Assembly: GCA_964607825.1 (NCBI GenBank)
Contig: CAZSNA010000001.1
Span: 23,697 to 87,696, forward strand
From: an uncultured Fibrobacteraceae bacterium
GTDB lineage: Bacteria > Krumholzibacteriota > Krumholzibacteriia > LZORAL124-64-63
Direction of reading: 5' to 3'
Length of the DNA stretch: 64,000 nucleotides
Part shown: positions 19,616-56,450 of the stretch, piece after piece
Layout: every line of letters begins with the position of its first letter
Position numbering within the stretch: position 1 is the first letter of the stretch
Translations under genes and position numbers: made by a program
Notes under the pieces: generated by a model
Databases searched by the model: none
Told to the model about the DNA's origin: nothing
Seen by the model: only the letters and a program-made list of their open reading frames with translations

Positions 19616-21004
19616 TCAGTCGGTGGGCGCGCTGTAGCGGGGCAGGGTGAGGACCGGGTCTCCGTCTGGATTCCAGAAGTGGCACCGGTTGCGGCCCCTC
19701 TGCTTGGACAGGTAGAGCATGCGGTCGGCGTTGCGGTAGAGCTCGTCGGGCGTGTCGCCCCCGCCCGGGAAGGCGGCGCCCCCGAAGGAGACGGTCACGC
19801 GCAAGGGGGACTCCGCGTCGGGATCGGACAGACGCAGGTTGGCGATGCCCACCTGGATGCGCGTCACGATGTCGCGGGCCGCGTCGAGTTCGGTGTTGGG
19901 CAGCACCAGGGCGAATTCCTCCCCGCCCACCCGGCAGACCAGATCGATCCGGCGCAGGCCGCGGAGCAGTTCGCGGGCCACGGCCCGCAGCACGCGGTCG
20001 CCGGCCGGATGTCCGAAGCGGTCGTTGATGTCCTTGAAGTGGTCGATATCCCCGAGGAGCAGCACCAGCGTGGAGTTGCGGCGCTGCGCACGTTCGATCT
20101 CGAGGGCGATCTGCTCCTCGAAGAAGCCCCGGTTGTGGACGCCGGTCAGCGGATCGACGTGGACCAGGCGCGTCATCCGGTGGGCCTGGCGCCACCCGTT
20201 GGTGACGAAGCGCGAGATGCGGCGGGCGAGCCGGATCAGGCTTTCACGCTCCGTGCCGACGCGGGCCACGGCGTAGAGCAGGCCGGCCTCCGCGACCGCG
20301 GTCCCGTCCGGCGTCTCGAGGACCTCGCGCGGCGGATAGAGCGGCACCGCCACGCCGCCGTGGAAGTCGGCGTCGCCGTCCGTTGCCGCGGCTCGCAGAC
20401 GCGGGGGCAGCTCCTCGCGGTCATGGATCCACACGGCCTCGCCCGCGCGGCGGGACGAGGTCCAGAACGGGCGTTCGCCCTGCGGGCAGTGGGTCACGTC
20501 CGGCAGCGGGTCGAGACCCTCGAGCTCGTCGAAGAGCTCGACGTGAAGGTCCACGTCGTCGAAGGCGGGTCGAAGCATGTCCAGCACGCCCTGCAGCAGG
20601 ACGGCCTCGCCATCGCTGGCGGCCCGCGTGAGGTTCAGGTCCTGGGCCCGCTCCATGGCGTTCAGCACGCGCTCGTGCATGCTGAACTCGTTGCCGGGAA
20701 TGCGGTCGCCTCGGTCCGTTCCGGCGGGGTCGCGAGCGATGTCCGCAGGGGCTTCGCTGAAGATCGGCGCCAGATCCAGAAGCATCGAATGACCGCGGAG
20801 CGCGAAATGCCGGGCCGGGCCCTCGTCCTGGTCGCCGACCAGGACGCGCACCAGATCTCCCCGGCCGACCAGGGTCGCCACCAGCGTCCGTCCGGCCGCC
20901 TGCAACGCCGCGGTATCGCCGCCGGCCAGGGCCACGCGCAGGTCGTGGCGCAGCGCGGGTCCGATGCGGGCTACGGACATCAGATGTCGGATCAGGTCGA
21001 TCAC
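19616..21004 (-). CDS. Diguanylate cyclase (GGDEF) with an N-terminal ~290-aa uncharacterised (GAF-like) sensory region
   Basis: GGDEF domain with active-site GGEEF (RVGGEEFALVL) and DxLTG…NRG upstream motifs. Directly upstream of comEC on the same strand. Confidence 0.85.
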   Translation of the reverse strand: MIDLIRHLMSVARIGPALRHDLRVALAGGDTAALQAAGRTLVATLVGRGDLVRVLVGDQDEGPARHFALRGHSMLLDLAPIFSEAPADIARDPAGTDRGDRIPGNEFSMHERVLNAMERAQDLNLTRAASDGEAVLLQGVLDMLRPAFDDVDLHVELFDELEGLDPLPDVTHCPQGERPFWTSSRRAGEAVWIHDREELPPRLRAAATDGDADFHGGVAVPLYPPREVLETPDGTAVAEAGLLYAVARVGTERESLIRLARRISRFVTNGWRQAHRMTRLVHVDPLTGVHNRGFFEEQIALEIERAQRRNSTLVLLLGDIDHFKDINDRFGHPAGDRVLRAVARELLRGLRRIDLVCRVGGEEFALVLPNTELDAARDIVTRIQVGIANLRLSDPDAESPLRVTVSFGGAAFPGGGDTPDELYRNADRMLYLSKQRGRNRCHFWNPDGDPVLTLPRYSAPTD

Positions 21005-21093
21005 GGCGAGAGGCGTCTCCGATCAGTTGTCGTTTCCAATGCCGGGCCCCGAGCGTATATTGGTGCGTCTGATGCACGAACGCACACCCTTAA

Positions 21094-21122
21094 TTGTGAC
21101 ACATGATGTGCATTCTTTCAAT
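21094..21122 (+). promoter_or_regulatory. Sigma70-like promoter (TTGTGA-N17-TTCAAT) in an AT-rich island upstream of mltD
   Basis: Direct reading of ttgtgacacatgatgtgcattctttcaat. Local AT content is far above the window average. About 65 nt upstream of the mltD ATG. Confidence 0.4.
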
Positions 21123-21185
21123 ATCGATGGCTTCCGGTAGACCTCCCAGTGACCATCGATCCCCTCCGCACCGTGGAGTTCAAGG

Positions 21186-22919
21186 ATGAACCGACCGATC
21201 GTTCCGCACAAGGTCCTTCCCCTGTCGATGCTGTTGCTCCCCCTGCTGGCCTTCTGGGCGGGGTGCGCCGGCGTCCCGGATTCGTCCCCGCGAGCGGCGG
21301 TCGACGTCGATGCGGCCGTTCCCGTTCCGGCGCCCGTCGACACCGCCGCGACGACCGCAGAAGTCCTCGCGGAGCCCTCGCCTCCCCCGCAGGACGGCGA
21401 CGGCCTCGCGTTGCAGCGCGTGCTCGAGGAACGGCCCGACCTGGCCCAGCTCGATCGCGCCTACCGCCAGGCCCTCGAGCTCCTCTCCCGGGCCCAGTAC
21501 GAGGCCGTCGAGGATCTGCTCTTCCTGCTCAAGGGCGAGACCGTGACCACGGTGCCCGCGGACCGCGACAGCCTGGCCCGCGCCTTCCTGTCCAGCCTGG
21601 ACCGTCGCGTGGGCCTGCTGGCTGGCGTCCTGGCCGAGGACCGGACCCTGAGCACCTCGGTCGCCGCCGACGACTCCCTGCTGACCGAGGCCTACGCCAG
21701 CCTGAAGGGTCTGTCCTTTCCGGACTCACTGATCCCCGTCTCCGGCGAGCGGCGGCGCGAGCTCCAGCGCGATCTGCTGCTGGTGGAGAACGAGGCCGTC
21801 GACAAGTGGATGGCCTACTTCACCGGCAACGGCCGTCTCAGCGTGCAGGCGTGGCTCGACCGCAAGGCCGCCGTCGACTCCCTGATCTACGCGGGACTCG
21901 ACGCCGCGGGCCTGCCCCGGGAGCTCATCTACCTGGCGGCCATCGAGAGCGGCTTCAATCCGCGCGCCCGCTCCGAGGCCGGCGCGGTGGGCACCTGGCA
22001 GTTCATGGCCAGCACCGCGCGCCATTTCCACCTGCGCTGCGACTGGTGGGTGGACGAGCGCCAGGATCCCGAGATGGCCACCCGCGCGGCGGCCACCTAC
22101 CTCTCCCAGCTTTACCACCACTTCGGCGACTGGGCCCTGGTGCTGGCCGCCTACAACACGGGCGAGCACAGGGTCGACCGCGCCATCCGCCTGGCCGGGC
22201 ACGACGACTTCTGGCGCCTGCACCTGCCCTGGCAGACACGCAACCACATCCCCAAGTTCATCGCCGTCGCCCGCATCTGCGAGGACCCGCTGGCGTACGG
22301 CTTCGAACCCACCGTCGCGCCCGCCCTCGGCTACGACGTGATCGACGTGACCGATGCCACCGACCTGGATCTCATCGCCCGCTGCGCCGACGTGGCGTCG
22401 GACGAGGTGGTCGCCCTCAACCCCGCCCTGCTCCGACGGGCCACGCCCCCCGGCCGCTCGGACTACCCCGTGCGCGTTCCCACCGGCACGGGCGCCCCGG
22501 CCCTGCGCGCCCTGCGCTCGATCCCCCTGGCGGAGCGTCTCACCTGGCGGCGCCACGTGGTGGAGCGGGGCGAGTCCCTGGGCGCCATCGCGGATCGCTA
22601 CGGCACCTCGGTCCGCGACATCGCGCGTCTGAACGGGATCGACGACGTGGCCCTCATCCATCCGGGCGACCGGTTGCTGATCCCCATGCCCGCCGAACTG
22701 GCCGAGCGGGCGCGCCTGCGCGTCGCCGAGAGCGGTCATTACGTGCCCCCTTCGGGCTACGAGCGCGTCAGCTACCGGGTTCGCTCCGGCGACACCCTCA
22801 CCGGCATCGCACGCAAGCTCGGCGTCACCCTGCGGCACCTGCGGCGCGTGAACAACATGCACGGCAACGCGCTGATCCGGCCGGGCGATCGCGTCTATGC
22901 GTACAGACCCCCGCGGTAA
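21186..22919 (+). CDS. mltD: Membrane-bound lytic murein transglycosylase D-like lipoprotein (SLT domain plus two C-terminal LysM domains)
   Basis: Lipoprotein signal MNRPIVPHKVLPLSMLLLPLLAFWAGCAG, SLT core AAIESGFNPRARSEAGAVGTWQFM...AAYNTGEHRV, and two LysM repeats (YVVERGESLGAIADRYG..., YRVRSGDTLTGIARKLG...). SD aagga before the ATG. Confidence 0.8.
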   Translation: MNRPIVPHKVLPLSMLLLPLLAFWAGCAGVPDSSPRAAVDVDAAVPVPAPVDTAATTAEVLAEPSPPPQDGDGLALQRVLEERPDLAQLDRAYRQALELLSRAQYEAVEDLLFLLKGETVTTVPADRDSLARAFLSSLDRRVGLLAGVLAEDRTLSTSVAADDSLLTEAYASLKGLSFPDSLIPVSGERRRELQRDLLLVENEAVDKWMAYFTGNGRLSVQAWLDRKAAVDSLIYAGLDAAGLPRELIYLAAIESGFNPRARSEAGAVGTWQFMASTARHFHLRCDWWVDERQDPEMATRAAATYLSQLYHHFGDWALVLAAYNTGEHRVDRAIRLAGHDDFWRLHLPWQTRNHIPKFIAVARICEDPLAYGFEPTVAPALGYDVIDVTDATDLDLIARCADVASDEVVALNPALLRRATPPGRSDYPVRVPTGTGAPALRALRSIPLAERLTWRRHVVERGESLGAIADRYGTSVRDIARLNGIDDVALIHPGDRLLIPMPAELAERARLRVAESGHYVPPSGYERVSYRVRSGDTLTGIARKLGVTLRHLRRVNNMHGNALIRPGDRVYAYRPPR

Positions 22920-22957
22920 CGGAACCGCGGGGGCCTTTCCCGAATCGCAGACTGTGA

Positions 22958-24046
22958 CTAGAAGCGGGCGGTGAGGCTGATCCGATGGGTCTCCTCGTCG
23001 ATCCCGAGCATGTCGCCGGCGTAGGCGTAGTCGATGGTCAGCCGCGAGACGCGGAAGCCGGCGCCCATGGTGATGTCGTTCAGGCTCCAGCCCGAATCGA
23101 AGCCTCCGCGCAGGAAGACCTTCTCGTGGAAGGCCAGCTCGCCGCCGAAGTGGATGTTCGTGCTGAGCGAGCCGGCGCTGTACTGGTCCGCCTCGCGCCG
23201 GTTGTCGAAGCGCGTCTCGGCGCTGGTGGCCAGGGTCACGCGCGCGCTCCACTCGGGCAGCATCAGGTGGTAGGCCAGGGCGGGCACCAGCGCCGGGCTG
23301 ATGTACTCGGTCAGGCTGTAGCCGTCGGGTCCGCTCCAGGCCAGCACCGTGGTGGTGATGTCCTGCAGCTTCAGGCCGAAGTCGAGGCCGCGCCAGACGC
23401 GAGGCCGGATCAGGCCCAGGTCGAGACCGATGCCCAGGCTGTTGTAGTCGCCCACGCTCTGACGGATGAACTTGACCGAGCCGCCGAGCTCCCAGTCGCC
23501 CTTGCGCTCGGCGTAGGACGCGAAGACGGCCAGCTCGGAATCGCTGGCGAAGCGGAACTGGTCCTGGAGGGTGAACAGGCCCTGGAGCTCGTCGTCGTCG
23601 ACGACGTCGTCGCCGTTCACGTCGAGCTGGTCGAAGAGGTGGTCGGTCAGGGGGATGTCGTCGATGCCGACCCGGATGGCCGAGACGGCGAAGGCGCCGT
23701 CCTCGCCGCCGAGCAGGGACCAGTCCACCGGCTGGGCGTAGGCCACGTAGTCGCGGTCGATCAGGTCGCCGAAGCGCTCGGCGTGCATCAGCAGCAGGTT
23801 CCGCTCGGCGGTGCCGGCGAGGCCGGCGGGGTTCCAGTAGGCCGCCGAGGGATCGTCCGCCACGGCGGTGAAGGCGCCGCCCATGGCCAGGGCGCGGGCG
23901 CCACCGCCGTCGTCCATGAAGGCGCCGGCGTACTTGGCGGCGTCGGCCGCGGCCGGGACGAGGGCGAGACAGGCGGCGAACAGCACGAGCGCCGTCCGCG
24001 CGAGGCGGGGCGACCGGCCGGTTCCGGGATTCGACATGAAGGCTCC
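22958..24046 (-). CDS. Outer-membrane beta-barrel protein of the FadL/PorV-PorQ-like family (candidate T9SS-associated OMP)
   Basis: Signal peptide MSNPGTGRSPRLARTALVLFAACLALVPAAADA followed by the family-typical GGGARALAMGGAFTAVADDPSAAYWNPAGLAG motif. Alternating beta-strand pattern, C-terminal aromatic (…LTARF). GAGGAG SD before the ATG at ~24044-24046. Confidence 0.5.
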   Translation of the reverse strand, partial: GAFMSNPGTGRSPRLARTALVLFAACLALVPAAADAAKYAGAFMDDGGGARALAMGGAFTAVADDPSAAYWNPAGLAGTAERNLLLMHAERFGDLIDRDYVAYAQPVDWSLLGGEDGAFAVSAIRVGIDDIPLTDHLFDQLDVNGDDVVDDDELQGLFTLQDQFRFASDSELAVFASYAERKGDWELGGSVKFIRQSVGDYNSLGIGLDLGLIRPRVWRGLDFGLKLQDITTTVLAWSGPDGYSLTEYISPALVPALAYHLMLPEWSARVTLATSAETRFDNRREADQYSAGSLSTNIHFGGELAFHEKVFLRGGFDSGWSLNDITMGAGFRVSRLTIDYAYAGDMLGIDEETHRISLTARF

Positions 24047-24096
24047 TCGCATTCCCAGGGGTCAGGAATCAGGGTCCGGGACGTTCAGCAAGGCCG

Positions 24097-24118
24097 TCCG
24101 TGGCGGACGGCCCGCTCA
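24097..24118. other. Perfect 9-bp stem hairpin (GGCCGTCCG-tggc-CGGACGGCC) in the fleQ/OMP intergenic region
   Basis: Direct reading. Lies just downstream of the fleQ-like stop and within the first ~30 nt of the predicted OMP transcript. No U-tract. Confidence 0.5.
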
Positions 24119-24119
24119 C

Positions 24120-24149
24120 ATTATACGACAGGGCCCGCACCGGGGCCAA
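24120..24149 (-). promoter_or_regulatory. Sigma70-like promoter for the PorV-like gene (TTGGCC-N18-TATAAT on the minus strand)
   Basis: Reverse complement reads ttggccccggtgcgggccctgtcgtataat with a perfect -10 hexamer. Confidence 0.4.
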
Positions 24150-24162
24150 GCCCGAGTCCGGT

Positions 24163-25743
24163 CTAACCCAGTCCGTACTTCTTGAGTTTCCGATAGAGCG
24201 TGCGCTCGCTGATGCCCAGGCGTTCGGCCGCCAGGCGACGCTTTCCGCCGGTCGCCCGCAGGGCCTGTTCGATCAGCGCGTGCTCGGCGCTCTCCAGGTC
24301 GCCGTCGCCGGCGACGGGTTCCGTCGAGTAGCCGGCCTCGCCGGCGAAGGTGTCCACGACGCGGCCGTCGAAACCCACCGGTCCGCCCACGGGACCGTCG
24401 ACCGACAGGGCCGCCTTGATCCGCTTCAGGTCCTCCCGCATCTCCAGCAGGGTGGCCATGATCAGTTCGGTCTCCCGCCCCGCCGTCATGGGGCCCACGG
24501 GCACCGGCAGCCGGTCCGCCCGGCCGGGCGCCCGGCCCGTGAGGATCTCCTCGGGCAGGTCCGCGGTCTCGATCATGCCGGTCTGCTTGAAGACGGCCAT
24601 CGACCGGATCGCGTTGCGGAGCTCACGCACGTTGCCGGGCCAGGGATAGGACGTGAGCAGATCCAGCGCCGGGCGGGCGATGCCGCGCAGGGAGAAGCCG
24701 TGCTCGCCGTTCTCCTGCTCCAGGAAGGTCCGGGCCAGGATGGGGACGTCCTCAGGCCGGTCGCGCAGCGGCGGCGTGGGGATGACCACCACGCGCAGAC
24801 GGTAGTAGAGGTCCTGGCGGAAGCGCCCGGCCTCCACCTCGGCGGCCAGGTCGCGATGGGTGGCCGCCACCAGGCGGATATCGCTGCGCTCGGTGCGGGT
24901 GCCGCCCACGGGCGTGAACTCCCCCGTCTCCAGGGCGCGCAGGAAGCGGGTCTGCATGGCCAGGGGCAGCTCGGCCACCTCGTCCAGGAAGAGGGTGCCC
25001 CCGTCCGCGCGCTTGAAGACGCCGTCGTGACGGCTCACCGCGCCGGTGAAGGCGCCCTTCTCGTGACCGAAGAGCTCGCTCTCCAGGACGCCCTCGCTCA
25101 GGGCGCCGCAGTTGAGGCTGACGAAGGGCTTGTCGGCGCGGCGGGAATGGTGATGGAGGGCGCGGGCGACCAGCTCCTTGCCGGTGCCGCTCTCCCCGAG
25201 CACGAGCACGTTCACGTCCAGGGGGGCCGCCTGGGCGATCAGGGCGATCATCTGGTTGACCGCGCGCGAGCGGCCGGCGATGCCGCTGCGCTGGCGCACC
25301 TCGCGCAGCTTGAGCAGCCGCTCCACCTCCAGCCGCAGCTCGTCCGCGCCCACGTTGGGCGCGAGCCGCCGCAGGGCGCCGCGATGGGGCTCGTCCTGCA
25401 GGCCCGACAGCACGGCCGGCGTGCCCAGCAGGATGAGGTCGGCGTCGCCCTTGAGGGTCAGGAACTTCTCGACCACGTGGCGGGAGCGGCCGAACTCGGC
25501 GGTGTCGAAGATCAGCAGGGCGCCCTCGCCCTCGGCGAAGAGGGCCAGGGCCTCCGAGGGGGAATCGTGGAGGCTGAGATCGACGCCCGGCAGGTGCCAG
25601 TCGGCGACGGTCTTGTAGAGGGCGGGTCTGCGTCCCAGGAGCGCGACGACGTGCGACACGGAAGGTCCTCCTGCTATTCTGTCAGACGATATGACATGCG
25701 AGCGCTCGGCGAGTGCGCGGCCAATCCGCTGATACGATAGCAT
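24163..25743 (-). CDS. fleQ: Sigma54-dependent transcriptional activator, FleQ/FlrA-like (degenerate N-terminal receiver-like domain, AAA+ sigma54-interaction domain, C-terminal Fis-type HTH)
   Basis: Walker A GESGTGKELVARALH, GAFTGA motif (EKGAFTGA), HTH GGKRRLAAERLGISERTLYRKLKKYG. N-terminal ~140 aa lacks the DD/phospho-acceptor pattern. Sits at the edge of the flagellar cluster. Confidence 0.75.
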   Translation of the reverse strand: MLSYQRIGRALAERSHVISSDRIAGGPSVSHVVALLGRRPALYKTVADWHLPGVDLSLHDSPSEALALFAEGEGALLIFDTAEFGRSRHVVEKFLTLKGDADLILLGTPAVLSGLQDEPHRGALRRLAPNVGADELRLEVERLLKLREVRQRSGIAGRSRAVNQMIALIAQAAPLDVNVLVLGESGTGKELVARALHHHSRRADKPFVSLNCGALSEGVLESELFGHEKGAFTGAVSRHDGVFKRADGGTLFLDEVAELPLAMQTRFLRALETGEFTPVGGTRTERSDIRLVAATHRDLAAEVEAGRFRQDLYYRLRVVVIPTPPLRDRPEDVPILARTFLEQENGEHGFSLRGIARPALDLLTSYPWPGNVRELRNAIRSMAVFKQTGMIETADLPEEILTGRAPGRADRLPVPVGPMTAGRETELIMATLLEMREDLKRIKAALSVDGPVGGPVGFDGRVVDTFAGEAGYSTEPVAGDGDLESAEHALIEQALRATGGKRRLAAERLGISERTLYRKLKKYGLG

Positions 25744-25804
25744 ATGTAAGAAGCGGACGCCAGCCGGAGGGGCGCCCGCTTTCCTGGCGTGTCAGGTGTC
25801 CGGA

Positions 25805-26272
25805 TCAGGAATGACGGTGGAGATATTCCATGTCCAGGCCGGTCAGGAAGGCCTGGTAGCTCTCGCCGCTGCCGGCCGCCTGGCCGCTGCGCAGGGCGAG
25901 CGCCTCGAGCGATTCGGCCGCCGAGCGCAGACGACCCAGGAGATCGTCCAGGGAGTCGGGCAGGGGCGTCTCGTCCCGGGGCGGCGTCTTCAGCCGCGTC
26001 TGTTCGATCCGATAGGCGGCCACGCCCGTCGGCGCGGCCACGCTGGGCTCGGGCGCCGTCTCGACGACCGGTTGCGTCTTCGCGACGGGACGGGGGCGGA
26101 TGCGCGGCTCGGGGCGGCCGGCCTTGCGCAGGGGCGGTTTCCCGCGCCAGCGTCGCCACTGGAGATAGAGGGTGACCACGATGGCGGTTCCGCCGGCGGC
26201 CAGCGCCACCGCGGCCAGCCAGGCCAGGGTGGTGTTCCCGCCGTTCATGCCGTTGACCATGTCGAGTTCCAT
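25805..26272 (-). CDS. Hypothetical single-pass membrane protein (N-terminal TM, Pro-rich linker, C-terminal helical domain)
   Basis: TM TLAWLAAVALAAGGTAIVVTLYLQW followed by RRWRGK (positive-inside), high GC3 coding. Downstream of fliA in the same orientation. No family recognised. Confidence 0.4.
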   Translation of the reverse strand: MELDMVNGMNGGNTTLAWLAAVALAAGGTAIVVTLYLQWRRWRGKPPLRKAGRPEPRIRPRPVAKTQPVVETAPEPSVAAPTGVAAYRIEQTRLKTPPRDETPLPDSLDDLLGRLRSAAESLEALALRSGQAAGSGESYQAFLTGLDMEYLHRHS

Positions 26273-26295
26273 CTGCGTCCCCTTCCGGGTATCCC

Positions 26296-26607
26296 TCAGG
26301 CCCGGGTGTCCAGCCGCCGGCCCACGCCGTCGGCGTCGTCCTCTTCGGTCTCGTCCCCGGCCGCCACCTCGGCGTCGCGGGAGTCGGCCGCCTCGTCCTG
26401 CTCCCGTTGCCGGCGCTCGTCCGGATCCACGCGGGAGCGGGTGTCCGTTTCCTCGGTCTGCTTGACCCGGTCCACGCGCTTGTCGTCCTGCGCCGTCTTG
26501 CTGGCGGCGGCGGGGTCGGTCTGGTTGGCCTGGCCCTTGGCCTGGGTACGGGCCACGTTCGAGGCCTGGCTCAGGGTCGTGTTGACCGAGATGCCGTCTG
26601 CGGCCAT
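26296..26607 (-). CDS. Hypothetical highly charged, probably disordered 103-aa protein
   Basis: D/E/R/Q/T-rich (…TEETDTRSRVDPDERRQREQDEAADSRDAEVAAGDETEEDDADG…). Immediately downstream of fliA. Lacks the conserved FlgM C-terminal motif. Confidence 0.35.
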   Translation of the reverse strand: MAADGISVNTTLSQASNVARTQAKGQANQTDPAAASKTAQDDKRVDRVKQTEETDTRSRVDPDERRQREQDEAADSRDAEVAAGDETEEDDADGVGRRLDTRA

Positions 26608-26629
26608 GGCCCCTCCTCTCCCCTGCCCG

Positions 26630-27574
26630 CTAGGTTCTCAGCGGGACATCCAACTCCATCAGGGCCGACGCCAACTTGATCAGCGGCGGCATCGCGAGAC
26701 CGGCCATGATGTTGATCTTCTCCACCAGCTCGCGCTTCAGATCCGACTCCTCGCCGTCGCTGCGCTGTTCGCGGATCTCGCGGGTCAGGCGGCTGAGGGA
26801 CTTGCGACCGTCGCTGCGCTGGATCTTGCCGCGCAGCCGCAGGATCGCCTTGGTGTGGATCTGGCACACGCGCGATTCGGTCACGTCGAGGATCTCGCCG
26901 ATCTCCTTGAGGGTGAGCTCCTCGTAGTAGTAGAGCACCAGCACGAGCTGCTCCTTGTCGGAGAGCTCGCCCAGGCTGCCCGCGACCAGGGCGCGCATCT
27001 CGTCCTCGGAGACGCTGGTCTCGGCGTCGGGCGTGCGGGTGTCGGGCAGGTAGTCGCCCAGACTGGAGCTGTTGGAATCGTCGTCCGAGTTGTCGGCGTC
27101 CAGGGAGACGATGGTGGCCACGGCCACCTCGTCCATCATCTGCGACAGCTCGCCGCGACTGACGCCCAGGTCCTTGGCGATCTCCTCGTCCGTGGGCGTG
27201 CGCCCGAAGCGCGCCTCCAGTCTGACGAAGGCGTCCTCGAGCTGGCGCGCCTTGCGGCGCAGCGAGCGCGGGAACCAGTCCTGCGAGCGCAGCTCGTCGA
27301 GGATCGCGCCGCGGATGCGCGGGATCGCGTAGGTCTCGAACTTGTTCCCGCGCCGGTAGTCGTAGTTGTCGATGGCCTGGATCAGGCCCAGCAACCCGGC
27401 GGAGATCAGATCCTTGTGGTCCACGTAATGGGGCAGTCCGATGGACATGCGCCCCGCCACGAACTTGACCACCCGCGCGTAGAGCTCGACCAGGTCCCGG
27501 CGGGCCTCCTGGTCCTCGCCCGCCTGCAGGCGCTCCCAGAGTTCGAAATGGGCGATGGTTTCTGTCTTCAGCAT
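26630..27574 (-). CDS. fliA: Flagellar sigma factor sigma28 (FliA/SigD), with a ~60-aa C-terminal extension
   Basis: Region 2 (HKDLISAGLLGLIQAIDNYDYRRGNKFETYAIPRIRGAILDELR), region 3 and region 4 HTH (LTLKEIGEILDVTESRVCQIHTKAILRL). 314 aa, against ~240 typical. Confidence 0.9.
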   Translation of the reverse strand: MLKTETIAHFELWERLQAGEDQEARRDLVELYARVVKFVAGRMSIGLPHYVDHKDLISAGLLGLIQAIDNYDYRRGNKFETYAIPRIRGAILDELRSQDWFPRSLRRKARQLEDAFVRLEARFGRTPTDEEIAKDLGVSRGELSQMMDEVAVATIVSLDADNSDDDSNSSSLGDYLPDTRTPDAETSVSEDEMRALVAGSLGELSDKEQLVLVLYYYEELTLKEIGEILDVTESRVCQIHTKAILRLRGKIQRSDGRKSLSRLTREIREQRSDGEESDLKRELVEKINIMAGLAMPPLIKLASALMELDVPLRT

Positions 27575-27612
27575 GCAGTGCCTCGTTGTGGGTGTCGGGT
27601 CTCGTTCAGGTC

Positions 27613-27627
27613 AGCAGTTTCCGTGCC
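27613..27627 (-). promoter_or_regulatory. Candidate sigma54 promoter upstream of fliA (GGCACG-N5-TGCT on the minus strand)
   Basis: Reverse complement gGGCACGgaaacTGCTg satisfies GG-N10-GC with a strong -24 element. About 40 nt upstream of the fliA ATG. Confidence 0.35.
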
Positions 27628-27632
27628 CGTCG

Positions 27633-27983
27633 TCATGGGGTCGCAGCCTCTTCGGCCGCCTTCTCCTCCGCCTCGCCGATGAGCTGCTTCTTGCGCTCTT
27701 CCTTGCGCCGGTCGCGCTCGGCCTGACGTTCGGCTTCCGCCTTCAGGCGCGTCTCTTCCTGCTCCTGCTGCTTGCGAAGTATCCGCTCGTGGTCCTCGCG
27801 CACCCACTCGTCGTGGATGCCGGCCCTGAAGACCAGGCTCAGGAGCGATCCCACCAGGTAGAAGGCGAAGTAGGCGATGGCCGCCCGCTTGAGCGTGGGC
27901 AGCGCGCCGAAGTCGCGCAGCAGCGCGTGGAGGATCGTGATGAGGGCCGCCCCCATGGCGGCGCTGTTGACGAACATCCGCAA
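27633..27983 (-). CDS. Hypothetical 116-aa protein: two predicted TM helices plus a K/E/R/Q-rich charged C-terminal tail. Occupies the slot where flhG/fleN normally lies
   Basis: MRMFVNSAAMGAALITILHALL…AYFAFYLVGSLLSLVF then …RKQQEQEETRLKAEAERQAERDRRKEERKKQ…. Fits exactly between flhF and fliA. Confidence 0.45.
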   Translation of the reverse strand: MRMFVNSAAMGAALITILHALLRDFGALPTLKRAAIAYFAFYLVGSLLSLVFRAGIHDEWVREDHERILRKQQEQEETRLKAEAERQAERDRRKEERKKQLIGEAEEKAAEEAATP

Positions 27984-28001
27984 GGGTCTCCTCCTTCAGG
28001 C

Positions 28002-29123
28002 TCAGCGGCTCTCCGCGGCCCGGACCGCGTCGACGCCGAGGATGCGCTCCACGAGGTCCGCGGCGTCGGGAATGACGGGGTGCGACCCCGGCCACTCGCC
28101 GCCGGCGACCAGCGACACGGCCATGGGAGCCGAGAGCAGCACGTCGACCAGCTTGCCCGGACCCGCCGTACGGTCCAGCCGCGTCAGGGACAGCCAGTCG
28201 CAGTTCCAGCCCCGCGCCTCGCTCCAGGCGCGCTCGCGGGCGGGGGTGTCGATATCCAGGGGCAGGACCAGGTGGCGGTGCACGTTCTCCAGGCCCGCCA
28301 GCATGTCCCGGAGGTCGGGATCGGACATGACGTCGCCGGTATGGGCCGGCGTGTCGATCAGCACGACGTCGTAGGCGGCGAAGATCTCGAGCCCGGCGGC
28401 GAGATGGGCCGCGTCCTTGAGGATGGCGGCGTCGTAGCCGTGGGCGGTGGCCTCCTCCCGGAAGCGCTCGATCTCGCCGGCGTGGCGCGGCGCGTAGGTC
28501 AGCACCAGGGCGCGATGACCCAGATCCTTCAGGCGCGCGGCCGTGGCGAGCACCAGGTCGGTCTTGCCCGCGCCCGGCCCCCCCAGGAAGAGATGGCATC
28601 CGGCCAGCGAGGCCCAGTCCCCGCCGCTGGTGCGGAGCTGGTCGCGCAGATGCCGCTCGGCCGTATGGGGCCGCCGGCCGCCGGTCTCGGCCAGGTAGAG
28701 GCGGCGCAGGAGGCGGACCGCGGGCAACGAGGCGCCGGTGGCCAGGAGCCGCTTGGCCAGGGGGTAGTCGTCGAAGCCGGTCTCGCGTTCCGCGCGTTCG
28801 GCGGCCTCGCGCTTCACGAGCGTCTCCACCATGGTCTCGATCCGCTCGACCTCGGCGCGGATGGCCTCGGCGGTGCGGGCGGGATCGGGACGCGGCTGCG
28901 GCGGCGTCGATGCGATCGGCGTCTCCCCCGGCGCCGGGCAGACGCTCACCTCGATGAACCGCTCGTCGCCGCGGGTCACGCTGCGCGTCTCGATGATGCA
29001 GGCGTCTTCACCGAACTCCCTGCGAGCCCCGGCGAGGGCGGCGCGGAGGGTCCGGCCGCGGATCTTGTGGACCACGGGGTCCAGGATCGCGGCGCCGGTC
29101 TCAGGCGTTGGCTTGCTGCTCAT
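28002..29123 (-). CDS. flhF: Flagellar biosynthesis SRP-type GTPase FlhF
   Basis: G1 LFLGGPGAGKTDLVLATAARL, G3 DTPAH, N-terminal B-domain-like region. Immediately after flhA. Confidence 0.85.
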   Translation of the reverse strand: MSSKPTPETGAAILDPVVHKIRGRTLRAALAGARREFGEDACIIETRSVTRGDERFIEVSVCPAPGETPIASTPPQPRPDPARTAEAIRAEVERIETMVETLVKREAAERAERETGFDDYPLAKRLLATGASLPAVRLLRRLYLAETGGRRPHTAERHLRDQLRTSGGDWASLAGCHLFLGGPGAGKTDLVLATAARLKDLGHRALVLTYAPRHAGEIERFREEATAHGYDAAILKDAAHLAAGLEIFAAYDVVLIDTPAHTGDVMSDPDLRDMLAGLENVHRHLVLPLDIDTPARERAWSEARGWNCDWLSLTRLDRTAGPGKLVDVLLSAPMAVSLVAGGEWPGSHPVIPDAADLVERILGVDAVRAAESR

Positions 29124-31215
29124 GTTGCACTCCCTGTAAGGAGACGGTTCCCGCGGACTGGACCTTGGTCTGGGCGGTCACCTCGGTGTAGCCCATGACC
29201 GGCAGGGTCGGGAACGTGGGTTCGATGAGTCGTTTGACGAACAGCCGCAGGGGCGTCGGCAGCAGCAGCACCGGCGGACGGCCCCGGGCGTAGACCTTCT
29301 GCAGGGTTCGTTCCAGCTGCTCCAGGAAGGACTGGGCCAGCAGCGGATCCAGCACCACCGCGCCGGCGCGCTCCGATTCGTGGACGGCCTGGCCGAGGCG
29401 CTGTTCGAGCTCCGGATGCAGGGTGACGGCGTAGACGTTCCCGTCGGGTTCCACGTAGAGGCGGCTGACGGTCCGCCGCAGCGCCTCGCGAACCTTCTCG
29501 ACCAGGTAGTCGGGACCGGCCTTGGCCTCCACGTGGTTGGCCAGCGTCTCCAGGATGGTGACGACGTCCTTGATGGGCACCCGCTCGTGCAGCAGCCCCT
29601 TGAGCACGTTGTGCAGGGTGTTGACGGGCACCTTGTCGGGGATCAGGTCCTCGATCAGGGCCGGCGCGAATTCGCGCACCGACTCGCACATGTCCTTCAC
29701 GTCCTGCCGCGAGAGCAGCTCGTCGGCGTGGGCGCGGATGGTCTCGCTCAGGTGGGTCGCCAGCACGGCGGTGGGCTCCACGACGGTGTAGCCCTCCATC
29801 TCGGCGGCGGCCTTGCGCGCGGGGTCGATCCAGACGGCGGGCAGCTGGAAGGCCGGCTCGACGGTCTCGAGGCCCTCGATCCGCTCCCCGCTCGTGTTGC
29901 CGGTGCTCATGGCCAGCAGGCGCCCCGGCTGCAGCTCGGCACGGTTGATCTCCACGCCCTTGAGCTTCAGCACGTAGGCGTTGGCCTCGAGCTGGAGGTT
30001 GTCCCGCACGCGGATGGGCTGGATGACCAGCCCCAGCTCGGAGCTGATCTGCTTGCGGATGTTGGTGATGCGCACCAGCAGGTCGCCGCCGCGCGACTCG
30101 TCCACCATGGGCAGCAGGCCGTAGCCCAGCTCCAGCTCCAGGGCGTCGGTCACGTAGAGCTCGCGGGTCAGGGACTCCTGCTCCGTCTCGGCGGGCGTGG
30201 CCGCCTCCTGCGCGGCCTGCTCGGCCGCGTCCTGGCGCTTCATGCGCTCGACGCGGCCGGCCACGATCCGTCCCGCCAGCGCGAACACGCCCGCGAGGCT
30301 CAGGAAGGGCATGGTGGGCAGACCGGGAATGAGGCCGAATACGGCCAGTGATCCCGCGGCCAGATACACGGCCTTGGGCTGGCGGAAGATCTGCAGCGTC
30401 AGGGCCTGGCCCAGGTTGAGCTTGCCGCTGGAGCGGGTGACCACCATGCCGGCGGCGGTCGAGACCAGCAGGGCGGGGATCTGGCTGACCAGGCCGTCGC
30501 CGACGGTCAGGATGGTGAACTGCCGCAGGGCCTCGCCGGCGGACAGGCCCATCTGGAGCATGCCCACCACGAAGCCGCCGATGATGTTGATCAGGGTGAT
30601 CACGATGCCGGCGATGGCATCGCCGCGGACGAACTTGCTGGCGCCGTCCATGGCGCCGAAGAACTCGGCCTCCGAGGCCACCTCGGCCCGACGCTCCCGG
30701 GCCTGGGCCTCGGTGATCAGGCCGGCGTTGAGGTCGGCGTCGACGGCCATCTGCTTGCCGGGCATGGCGTCCAGGGTGAAACGGGCGGCCACCTCGGCGA
30801 TCCGGCCCGAACCCTTGGTGATCACCACGAACTGGACGATCACCAGGATGGCGAAAACTATGACACCGATGACATAATTCCCGCCGATCACGAAGTCGCC
30901 GAAACTGGCGATCACCTTGCCGGCCGCGCCCTTGGAGAGGATCAGACGCGTCGAGGCCACGTTCAGGGCGAGCCTGTAGAGGGTCACCATCAGCAGCAGC
31001 GAGGGGAAGCTGGAGAAGTGGAGGGGCTCTTTCAGGTACAGGGCCACCAGCAGGACGACCACCGCGAAGGCGATGTTGAAAGTGATCAAAAGGTCCAGGA
31101 CGATGGGATTTACGGGCATGATCATCAGACCGATGACCGCCACCACCGCCAGGGCGCTCAGCACGTTGCTATTGGCCAGGATCAGATCCCGGTCGATGCC
31201 CTTGGTCCCTTCCAC
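29101..31215 (-). CDS. flhA: Flagellar export apparatus protein FlhA
   Basis: 704 aa; N-terminal 8-TM domain (…FGDFVIGGNYVIGVIVFAILVIVQFVVITKGSGRIAEVAARFTLDAMPGKQMAVDADL…) and large cytoplasmic C-domain. Confidence 0.95.
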   Translation of the reverse strand: MEGTKGIDRDLILANSNVLSALAVVAVIGLMIMPVNPIVLDLLITFNIAFAVVVLLVALYLKEPLHFSSFPSLLLMVTLYRLALNVASTRLILSKGAAGKVIASFGDFVIGGNYVIGVIVFAILVIVQFVVITKGSGRIAEVAARFTLDAMPGKQMAVDADLNAGLITEAQARERRAEVASEAEFFGAMDGASKFVRGDAIAGIVITLINIIGGFVVGMLQMGLSAGEALRQFTILTVGDGLVSQIPALLVSTAAGMVVTRSSGKLNLGQALTLQIFRQPKAVYLAAGSLAVFGLIPGLPTMPFLSLAGVFALAGRIVAGRVERMKRQDAAEQAAQEAATPAETEQESLTRELYVTDALELELGYGLLPMVDESRGGDLLVRITNIRKQISSELGLVIQPIRVRDNLQLEANAYVLKLKGVEINRAELQPGRLLAMSTGNTSGERIEGLETVEPAFQLPAVWIDPARKAAAEMEGYTVVEPTAVLATHLSETIRAHADELLSRQDVKDMCESVREFAPALIEDLIPDKVPVNTLHNVLKGLLHERVPIKDVVTILETLANHVEAKAGPDYLVEKVREALRRTVSRLYVEPDGNVYAVTLHPELEQRLGQAVHESERAGAVVLDPLLAQSFLEQLERTLQKVYARGRPPVLLLPTPLRLFVKRLIEPTFPTLPVMGYTEVTAQTKVQSAGTVSLQGVQHEQQANA

Positions 31216-34249: not shown

Positions 34250-34267
34250 CCGCAAGGCGCGTGCCAG
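34250..34267 (-). promoter_or_regulatory. Sigma54 promoter (cTGGCACG-cgcc-TTGCG on the minus strand) in the 175-nt fliO-fliP gap
   Basis: Direct reading of the reverse complement of ccgcaaggcgcgtgccagg. Near-perfect match to TGGCACG-N4-TTGCA. About 55 nt upstream of the fliP ATG. Confidence 0.6.
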
Positions 34268-54778: not shown

Positions 54779-55153
54779 CTACTCGAGCAGGGTGTCGAGT
54801 CCGCGCATGAGTTCGGTGAGCCGGCCGGCCACCTGCTGCCGGATCTCGTTCGAACCGTACACGCCGGACTGCAGCCGACGCTGGACGGTCTCCATCTTCT
54901 CCCTGCGCACCGGATCCGCCTCGTCCAGCTTGGCCTGCCCCGCCTCGAGCAAGTCCCGCATCTGCTCCAGCTTGCGCGCCGACGACGAGATCTCCAGCCG
55001 CTCCCCCTCCGGCCTGACGGAGGCCTGGGTCTCGGCACCGGCCTCGGCCTGGGCGGCGCGAGCGCCGTCCGCTTCCGCTTGACGCGTCTGCTGGAACTGG
55101 GCCAGTGCGCGGGGATCGTTGAGCTGCGAGTGGTCGATCTTGGGGGTCGGCAT
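54779..55153 (-). CDS. flgM: Anti-sigma28 factor FlgM
   Basis: 124 aa, low complexity, with the FlgM signature C-terminus …GERLEISSSARKLEQ…VRREKMETVQRRLQSGVYGSNEIRQQVAGRL. A sigma28 promoter lies upstream. Confidence 0.7.
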   Translation of the reverse strand: MPTPKIDHSQLNDPRALAQFQQTRQAEADGARAAQAEAGAETQASVRPEGERLEISSSARKLEQMRDLLEAGQAKLDEADPVRREKMETVQRRLQSGVYGSNEIRQQVAGRLTELMRGLDTLLE

Positions 55154-55254: not shown

Positions 55255-55282
55255 TTATCGGACGAGAGGGCATTATCTTTAG
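55255..55282 (-). promoter_or_regulatory. Sigma28 (FliA) promoter for flgM: TAAAGATA-N11-tCCGATAA on the minus strand
   Basis: Reverse complement of ttatcggacgagagggcattatcttta. Spacer is exactly 11 nt. About 95-nt leader to the flgM ATG. Confidence 0.6.
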
Positions 55283-55434: not shown

Positions 55435-55462
55435 TAAAGTTTCGCCCCCCCGCCGCCGATAC
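55435..55462 (+). promoter_or_regulatory. Sigma28 (FliA) promoter for fliC: TAAAGTTT-N12-GCCGATAc
   Basis: Direct reading of ctaaagtttcgcccccccgccgccgatacc. About 140-nt leader to the fliC ATG at 55611, with SD aggaaggag. Confidence 0.6.
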
Positions 55463-55610: not shown

Positions 55611-56450
55611 ATGTCCCTGCGCATCAACACCAACGTCGCCAGCCTCAACGCTCAGCGTAACCTGTACAACACCACCATGAATCTGAACAAGTCGCTGGAG
55701 CGGCTCAGCTCGGGTCTGCGCATCAACCGCGCCGGCGACGACGCTGCCGGCCTGGCGATCTCTGAGAACCTGAAGTCCGACATCCGCGCCCTGGAGCAGT
55801 CCGCGCGGAACGCGGCCGACGGCATCTCCATGATCCAGGTGGCCGAGGGCGCGCTGAACGAGGTCAGTGACATCCTCATCCGCATGCGCGAGCTGGCCCA
55901 GCAGGCCTCGAACGAAACCCTGGGCACCGCCGAGCGCGGCTACCTGGACACGGAGTACGAGGCCCTGGCCGCGGAGATCACCCGTATCGCCGACAGCACC
56001 GAGTTCAACGGCACCAACCTGCTGGACAGCTCGGCGTCGTCCCGCGACATCCAGGTCGGTCTCTCGAACACCGCCGCCGACGTCATCACGCTGGACTTCA
56101 GCACCGACACCGACGCGACCGCGCTCGGCGTTGATGCTGCTGCGGCCGATCTGACCGGCGCCAACAACACGAACGCCCAGGCGGCCATGGCGTTGATCGA
56201 GACGGCCATCGACTCGATCAGCAGCACGCGGGCCTCCTTCGGCGCCTCCCAGAACCGCCTGGAGTCCTCCATCCGCGGTATTCACAACTCGGTGGAGAAT
56301 CTCTCCGCGGCGAACAGCGCCATCCGGGACGTGGACATCGCGGCCGAGACCGCGCACATGACCAGCTCGCAGATCCTGCAGCAGGCCGGTGTGTCGGTGC
56401 TGGCCCAGGCGAACATGTCGCCGCAGATGGCTCTGATGCTGCTGCAGTAA
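55611..56450 (+). CDS. fliC: Flagellin (short, 279 aa)
   Basis: N-terminal D0/D1 MSLRINTNVASLNAQRNLYNTTMNLNKSLERLSSGLRINRAGDDAAGLAISE… and C-terminal …SQILQQAGVSVLAQANMSPQMALMLLQ. Confidence 0.95.
   Translation: MSLRINTNVASLNAQRNLYNTTMNLNKSLERLSSGLRINRAGDDAAGLAISENLKSDIRALEQSARNAADGISMIQVAEGALNEVSDILIRMRELAQQASNETLGTAERGYLDTEYEALAAEITRIADSTEFNGTNLLDSSASSRDIQVGLSNTAADVITLDFSTDTDATALGVDAAAADLTGANNTNAQAAMALIETAIDSISSTRASFGASQNRLESSIRGIHNSVENLSAANSAIRDVDIAAETAHMTSSQILQQAGVSVLAQANMSPQMALMLLQ

Follow-up and report, generated by a model that had tools for sequence, protein, structure and literature searches.

We analyzed a 64,000-nucleotide (nt) stretch of contig CAZSNA010000001.1 from an uncultured Fibrobacteraceae bacterium (hereafter the window; G+C = 70%), concentrating on two small genes, orf103 and orf155, that follow the sigma-28 gene fliA. 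fliA (26630-27574, minus strand; 314 amino acids (aa); TIGR02479, 2.9e-80) is the first gene of the transcription unit that we infer below. On the same strand it is followed by orf103 (26296-26607), which encodes an acidic, predicted disordered protein of 103 aa, and by orf155 (25805-26272), which encodes a predicted bitopic inner-membrane protein of 155 aa. The initial annotation had placed two same-strand genes right after fliA; their coordinates and the gaps of 22 nt (fliA-orf103) and 23 nt (orf103-orf155) were confirmed. As read from the open reading frames (ORFs) of the window, the minus strand carries an almost complete flagellar supercluster in a Bacillus/spirochaete-type order: flgB-flgC-fliE-fliF-fliG-fliH-fliI ... 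flgD-flgE-motA-motB-fliL-fliM-fliN-fliO-fliP-fliQ-fliR-flhB-flhA-flhF. flhF (28002-29123, minus strand; TIGR03499, 3.9e-14) is separated from fliA by o116 (27633-27977, minus strand), whose 114-aa product has two transmembrane (TM) helices and a charged tail, and the series flgB...flhB-flhA-flhF-o116-fliA-orf103-orf155 remains on a single strand throughout. Downstream of orf155 lies a gene for a sigma-54 enhancer-binding protein (EBP; 24163-25743 as annotated, minus strand).

Chance ORFs longer than 100 aa occur in most frames of such G+C-rich DNA, and six others overlap the orf103/orf155 region, among them a 628-aa ORF on the plus strand. The G+C content at third codon positions is 0.93 in orf103 and 0.885 in orf155 (fliA, 0.94; flhA, 0.93; flhF, 0.93), whereas that of the overlapping alternative ORFs is only 0.57-0.72. 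GGAGG-like ribosome-binding sites precede the ATG start of both genes, and protein homologues of the same length exist in other lineages. Owing to the codon-position signal, the ribosome-binding sites and the length-matched homologues, we conclude that orf103 and orf155 are real genes.

In a word-indexed search, orf155 had only four relatives and orf103 had none. On the contigs that carry the orf155 relatives, however, a gene encoding 102-107 aa occupies the orf103 position, and its product is 47-58% identical to orf103. A profile made from three proteins in the orf103 position then retrieved 18 proteins of 102-114 aa, all unannotated, while an orf155 profile, run in full with HMMER against 1.84 billion representatives, matched 30 clusters of 140-176 aa from end to end. 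The related loci came from exact-protein look-ups together with a genome scan and a metagenome scan, and were then searched locally with hidden Markov models. Lineages were counted as distinct at <90% identity in orf155, which gave 19 lineages with a G+C content of 0.54-0.71.

The order fliA, orf103, orf155 on one strand is kept in all of the 19 lineages where upstream DNA is present. The gaps range from 12 to 63 nt between fliA and orf103 and from 10 to 59 nt between orf103 and orf155. Every member of the orf155 family with a readable context has a member of the orf103 family just ahead of it, and o116 is found 5' of fliA wherever the contig extends far enough. The gene downstream of orf155 usually encodes the EBP, but an HDOD protein in lineage L016; the pair is therefore tied to fliA and not to the EBP gene. 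Between relatives, the identity of each small protein to its own homologues is 45-59%, compared with 80-88% for FliA and the EBP. Both small proteins thus evolve faster than their neighbours, yet their lengths and motifs are kept. In one locus, L031 (1-3100), a flhF-like gene has the reverse orientation, and what remains of fliA ahead of the pair encodes no more than its final 123 aa; such an upstream arrangement is either a true inversion or rearrangement or an assembly artefact. Collectively, the pair is kept in other genomes as well, and no homology of either protein to housekeeping families was seen. As judged from sequence comparison, orf103 and orf155 represent two unannotated protein families that are restricted to one uncultured clade and have no detectable named homologues.

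A sigma-54-type element ahead of fliA

A scan of the window revealed a putative promoter with a sigma-54-type -24/-12 element, GGGCACGGAAACTGC (27614-27628, minus strand), which starts 5 nt past the o116 stop codon and ~37 nt ahead of the fliA ATG. The pattern GGCA[CT]-N6-TGC[AT] is present in 16/16 related loci; its distance from fliA is 35-40 nt in 14 loci and 73 nt in the other two (L011 and L012), and the remaining spacer around the element is not conserved. In this clade, fliA appears to be a sigma-54-dependent gene.

The gaps between fliA, orf103 and orf155 are too short for promoters, and a simple terminator scan of 23800-29300, from flhF to the EBP gene, found none. Given the conserved gene order, the short gaps and the conserved -24/-12 element, fliA-orf103-orf155 looks like a single sigma-54-driven unit, probably also fed by read-through from flhA-flhF-o116. 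Co-transcription with fliA, as suggested earlier, thereby gains comparative support from the sigma-54 element and from gaps of 10-63 nt in all lineages.

We also noted a G+C-rich hairpin with a weak T tail 25 nt past the orf155 stop codon (25753-25779, minus strand). The corresponding minimum-free-energy folds are seen in several lineages, and RNAalifold pairs seven positions, four of them with compensatory changes, at a weak consensus energy of -6.6 kcal/mol. The hairpin overlaps a promoter-like element of the downstream EBP gene; it is possibly, and tentatively, the end of the fliA-orf103-orf155 unit. A scan for sigma-70 promoters gave a single site, which lies downstream of the EBP gene and is not relevant to the unit. 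An Rfam search of the window found no RNA families. Elsewhere in the window, a perfect TGGCAC-N5-TTGC match lies ahead of fliP, inside the long flagellar operon (34252-34266, minus strand).

Features of orf155, orf103, FliA and o116

orf155 contains one hydrophobic segment, at aa 16-38 (26159-26227 of the window), with a maximum Kyte-Doolittle score of 2.08 over 19 residues. The net charge of the flanks is -2 on the N-terminal side and +7 on the C-terminal side; therefore, the N-terminus, a short segment of aa 1-15, is predicted to be outside and the C-terminus inside. The AF2 model, which has low confidence (pLDDT 54), places helices at residues 3-44, 84-95, 105-132 and 136-154; for both orf103 and orf155 the models (pLDDT 54) were used for secondary structure only. 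Hydropathy, flank charges and predicted helices agree with the initial annotation, by which orf155 crosses the membrane once and has a helical domain in the cytoplasm.

Family motifs of orf155 were read from a first alignment (A3) and from a 33-sequence family alignment. The best-conserved segment is the TM helix itself, which is rich in Ala and Gly, has the consensus aW..A.a.AaGgT, and contains ten residues that are invariant in A3 (A17, W18, A21, A23, A25, A26, G27, G28, T29 and A30). Such a pattern fits a specific intramembrane contact and not a passive anchor. After the TM helix, a positive patch is followed by a variable Pro/Ala/Arg-rich linker with a nearly invariant [AG]-Y-[RQ] motif, and then by a C-terminal helical hairpin (aa 105-155; 25808-25960 of the window) with the amphipathic pattern L..LL.RL..AA..LE. 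Most members end in [VI]-E-[YF]-[LVI]-[HFY]-[RK], that is, a VEYLHR-type end. Searches with orf155 against Pfam (E<=1) and NCBIfam, and with 10 family members against Pfam (E<=10), returned noise only.

orf103 has a pI (isoelectric point) of 4.46, a GRAVY (grand average of hydropathy) of -1.35, no aromatic or Cys residues, and a net charge of -10 in its last third. Its charged composition and disorder, which had been proposed before, are upheld by the pI, by a content of 77% disorder-promoting residues, and by an AF2 model with three nominal helices at a mean pLDDT of 54. A 20-sequence alignment showed three conserved parts. The amphipathic N-terminus reads M-x-x-D-G-[FIL]-S-V-[KN]-T-T-[IL]-S-Q-x-x-N-V-A-R-x-Q-x-K-G-Q; the centre has a K-R-V-D-R-[VI]-K..E-E / D-P-D..R motif, followed by a variable acidic stretch; and the extreme C-terminus ends in G-x-x-[LIV]-D-T-[KRT]-A. 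Such a pattern is that of a protein that is disordered but carries short elements for binding, two or three in number. Searches with orf103 against Pfam, NCBIfam and PDB sequences, including 20 family members against Pfam, likewise gave noise only. Among the matches dismissed for the two families were Flattop, Zip and SfLAP in Pfam, and, as chance hits of profiles against the PDB, V-ATPase subunit G (E=3.2) and the MHC class I alpha chain (E=0.08).

FliA itself is unusual in this clade. The TIGR02479 FliA/WhiG match covers residues 28-251 only, and past region 4 the protein continues into a clade-specific C-terminal extension of ~60 aa (26633-26812, minus strand), which ends in the hydrophobic, proline-containing tail KINIMAGLAMPPLIKLASALMELDVPLRT (26633-26719). 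The tail is kept in 15/16 orthologues (maximum Kyte-Doolittle score over 19 residues, 1.5-2.3) and is more hydrophobic in more distant lineages, for example VNITACLVAAPMALALLASVVGLPVT. It could anchor FliA in the membrane by its tail, or serve as a hydrophobic docking peptide. No earlier case of a sigma-28 factor with a C-terminal transmembrane segment came up in a literature search, which was incomplete and does not prove that there is none.

The tail occurs in the same lineages as o116, orf103 and orf155. Together, the four make up a four-part novelty around fliA in this clade. o116 occupies the usual place of flhG, between flhF and fliA, and no MinD/FlhG-like gene was seen there or in the window ORF list, of which not every ORF was scanned. 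The charged tail of o116 contains a conserved EERKKQLIGE, and the protein has no match in Pfam or NCBIfam. In Campylobacterota, flgV lies directly upstream of fliA, after flhF/flhG, and encodes a motor-ring protein of 104-127 aa with two TM helices, of which the GFFxG helix contacts FliF (PMC10655999). Compared at the level of these descriptions, o116 resembles FlgV in size (114 aa), in its two TM helices and in its position upstream of fliA; unlike FlgV, it has a long charged tail with EERKKQLIGE, and flhG is absent from that position here. Because o116 looks like FlgV in position and architecture, small lineage-specific membrane accessories would seem to be typical of the flhF/fliA neighbourhood.

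Candidate roles of the pair

The initial annotation had likened orf155 to SwrB (YlxL) of Bacillus subtilis, whose gene follows sigD and which activates flagellar type III export (PMC4526659; bioRxiv 10.1101/2021.04.30.442225). SwrB is a 167-aa protein of narrow distribution, with one N-terminal TM helix followed by positive charges, a poorly conserved middle region, and a C-terminus that was found experimentally to be cytoplasmic (PMC4526659; bioRxiv 10.1101/2021.04.30.442225). It activates export at the hook stage, its localisation is sub-stoichiometric and transient, and a His in its TM helix is functionally important. orf155 is like SwrB in size (155 vs 167 aa), in its predicted N-out/C-in topology, in the positive charges after the TM helix, in a poorly conserved middle flanked by conserved residues, and in its narrow distribution. 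Its gene likewise lies at the 3' end of a flgB...flhA-flhF-...-sigma operon, after the sigma-28 gene. By contrast, orf103, of which Bacillus has no counterpart, separates orf155 from fliA, and the TM helix of orf155 is rich in Ala and Gly where that of SwrB has a functional His.

A second known protein of this design is FipA of Vibrio, Shewanella and Pseudomonas, which recruits FlhF to the membrane (PMC11620751). The N-terminus of FipA (163 aa) extends only very briefly into the periplasm; it is followed by a TM helix (residues 6-28) and by a helical or coiled cytoplasmic part that carries a conserved C-terminal domain, DUF2802, with a G/E/L motif; the fipA gene comes right after the flhA-flhF-flhG-fliA(-che) operon and is found only in genomes with FlhF (PMC11620751). 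orf155 shares with FipA the short outside N-terminus, the single TM helix and a gene position after flhF-...-fliA; it differs in having no PF10975/DUF2802 match, and its clade has no flhG between flhF and fliA. Of the two proteins together with which FipA occurs, FlhF and FlhG, the former is encoded in the window.

We tentatively favour, at somewhat less than even confidence, the view that orf155 is a SwrB/FipA-like membrane-anchored flagellar factor and orf103 its disordered cofactor, both of them specific to this lineage. The preference is due to the conserved TM helix and to the existence of two studied look-alikes. In such a mechanism, orf155 would be an N-out/C-in bitopic inner-membrane protein whose TM helix, with its conserved small residues, is packed onto another membrane component at the base of the flagellum, which might be the export gate, the TM helices of FliF, or o116. 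On the cytoplasmic side, [AG]Y[RQ], the hairpin and the VEYLHR end would serve to capture a cytoplasmic partner at the membrane. orf103 would fold upon binding, by way of its N-terminal helix and its C-terminal D-T-K-A end, and might serve as the cytoplasmic cofactor or adaptor of orf155. Both proteins would be made with sigma-28 from the sigma-54 promoter as the export apparatus and the basal body near completion, and orf155, produced together with sigma-28, would promote or license an early step of flagellar assembly. The interaction partners and the assembly-factor role are inferred.

Several observations weigh against this view. The likeness to SwrB and FipA is one of architecture and position only. 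The alignment of the orf155 profile A3 with B. subtilis SwrB by hhalign had a probability of 0.3%, with a SwrB sequence that agrees with the published description in length (167 aa) and in H13, L48, F51, L53 and L155. PF10975/DUF2802 was not matched by orf155 (E<=1) or by 10 members of its family (E<=10). The orf155 gene is two genes, not one, past the sigma gene. Both structure models have low confidence (pLDDT 54), and a Foldseek comparison of the orf155 model with the PDB gave nothing, its best E-value being a meaningless 1.5. Lastly, the strict linkage to fliA and the hydrophobic tail of FliA fit a role directed at sigma-28 equally well. Of the earlier analogy with SwrB, size, topology, the variable middle and the place at the operon end thus stand, and sequence homology does not. 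By these tests, orf155 belongs to neither the SwrB nor the FipA family, and is a third family of the same design and operon position.

The role directed at sigma-28 would take the form of a membrane-coupled control module, in which orf155, possibly with o116, holds or releases FliA at the inner membrane via its tail. orf103 would then oppose or time this step, in the manner of an anti-anti-sigma factor or of a co-regulator that is exported, and the module would act as a second, FlgM-independent checkpoint on the expression of late flagellar genes. A sigma factor gene is typically co-transcribed with its regulators, and fliA, orf103 and orf155 would share a dedicated, conserved sigma-54 promoter. 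Moreover, the pair is never parted from fliA, though the gene downstream changes; the ~60-aa FliA extension with its hydrophobic tail co-occurs with the three small genes; and both orf103, being disordered, and the part of orf155 inside the cell are of a kind that folds once bound, like FlgM on sigma-28. However, the window already has a gene of FlgM type, with a sigma-28 promoter close to the consensus. The tail of the window FliA, moreover, has K, E and D residues and a PP pair, so that it may be an amphipathic docking peptide.

A comparison with membrane anti-sigma factors bears on the same question. Those of the RseA, RsiW and FecR types are single-pass proteins, co-transcribed with the sigma gene, with an anti-sigma domain inside at the N-terminus and a sensor outside at the C-terminus. 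orf155 is also single-pass, and its gene shares a probable transcription unit with a sigma gene, but its predicted topology is reversed, with only ~15 residues outside, and no anti-sigma domain was matched in Pfam by orf155 or its relatives. Anti-sigma factors usually show little conservation in their TM helices; in orf155, the TM helix is the most conserved segment. We regard the sigma-28 module as doubtful, but as the main alternative, favoured by the strict linkage to fliA, the dedicated promoter and the FliA tail. Quite unlikely, in our estimate, is its fullest form, in which the sigma-28 of this clade is associated with the membrane via its tail, and o116, orf103 and orf155 form a membrane device that sequesters and releases it. 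If true, such a device would tie the expression of late flagellar genes to how the basal body stands, as a second checkpoint with no relation to FlgM, and it would replace functions that are covered elsewhere by FlhG and FlgM.

It is improbable, in our view, that orf155 and orf103 are stoichiometric structural parts of the motor or basal body, comparable to FlgV, FliL or collar proteins and visible in the motor, and not factors that act transiently in assembly or regulation. Their location within a complete flagellar supercluster agrees with that idea, as does the conserved small-residue TM helix, which recalls the FliF-contacting GFFxG helix of FlgV; the neighbour o116, too, resembles FlgV in size, topology and position. 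Nevertheless, orf155 is for the most part a variable Pro/Ala/Arg linker and orf103 is nearly all disordered, which is atypical of ring formers, and both evolve faster (45-59% identity) than FliA and the EBP (80-88%).

The initial annotation had also found orf103 reminiscent of FlgM-type regulators. Like FlgM, orf103 is small, predicted to be intrinsically disordered and linked to sigma-28, and its conserved N-terminus and its place next to fliA would suit a divergent anti-sigma-28 factor exported via the flagellar type III system. It differs from FlgM in its C-terminal half, which is a variable acidic stretch in place of conserved helices that bind sigma-28. PF04316 was not matched by orf103 or 20 members of its family at E<=10, so that the annotated absence of the C-terminal FlgM motif is confirmed. 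By hhalign, the orf103 family aligned with the FlgM-like protein of the window at a probability of 0.15%, and with Salmonella FlgM at 0.07%. Genes of the FlgM type are transcribed, in part or wholly, from a sigma-28 (class 3) promoter; no sigma-28 site (TAAA-N15-GCCGATAA-like) was found near 26600-27650, that is, upstream of orf103. A better candidate lies at 54779-55153 (minus strand), where a gene for a 124-aa FlgM-like protein carries the motif RREKMETVQRRLQSGVYGSNEIRQQVA and a PF04316 match of E=1.6e-3, below the Pfam threshold. Ahead of this gene is the best putative sigma-28 promoter of the window, with one mismatch (55255-55281, minus strand; TAAAG-N14-TCCGATAA). Since neither PF04316 nor hhalign gave a match (all <0.2%) and a better FlgM candidate exists, orf103 is, on sequence grounds, not FlgM. 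The resemblance to FlgM is not sustained, and the idea of an exported FlgM-type factor, largely refuted at the sequence level, is very improbable. A weaker sigma-28-like site lies at 55436-55462 (plus strand), ahead of a divergent flagellin gene (55611-56450).

That the two ORFs are spurious, or are unrelated hitch-hikers with no flagellar role, as the many chance ORFs of high-G+C DNA and the lack of a family annotation for either protein might suggest, is hardly credible in view of their codon-position G+C and ribosome-binding sites, of protein-level conservation with kept motifs and lengths, and of strict synteny in 19 lineages (G+C 0.54-0.71). That they are spurious is refuted; as to their being unrelated, no family member was seen away from flagellar genes.

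Small, lineage-specific membrane proteins with genes beside flhF and fliA, such as Bacillus SwrB, the FipA of gamma-proteobacteria and the FlgV of Campylobacterota, each control the site, timing or number of flagella. With the orf103/orf155 pair, a high-G+C clade that has no known cultured member would have arrived independently at a third or fourth solution in this operon position. Should FliA be the target, the pair would represent a new kind of membrane gating of a sigma factor. If it acts instead on the export gate or on FlhF, it would point to a general need for a co-expressed monotopic activator.

Genes downstream of orf155

The EBP gene probably starts at a GTG at 25659 and not at the annotated ATG at 25743, since homologues and independent gene calls point to the former. 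With this start, a 145-nt intergenic region separates it from orf155 (25660-25804, minus strand). The region contains a conserved promoter-like element for the EBP gene, TTGGCG-N17-TGCTATnAT, and, just upstream of the EBP ribosome-binding site, CTGACA repeats that are locally conserved; a window-wide search showed no enrichment of the repeat. The N-terminal 150 aa of the EBP gave no REC or FleQ match in Pfam, and the label 'fleQ' that this gene had received is unverified.

Past the EBP gene, a predicted outer-membrane protein of UPF0164-like type is encoded at 22958-24052, an SLT/LysM lytic transglycosylase at 21186-22919 (plus strand) and a GGDEF protein at 19616-21004. In most related lineages, these genes (together 19616-24052 of the window) are syntenic with the flagellar cluster.

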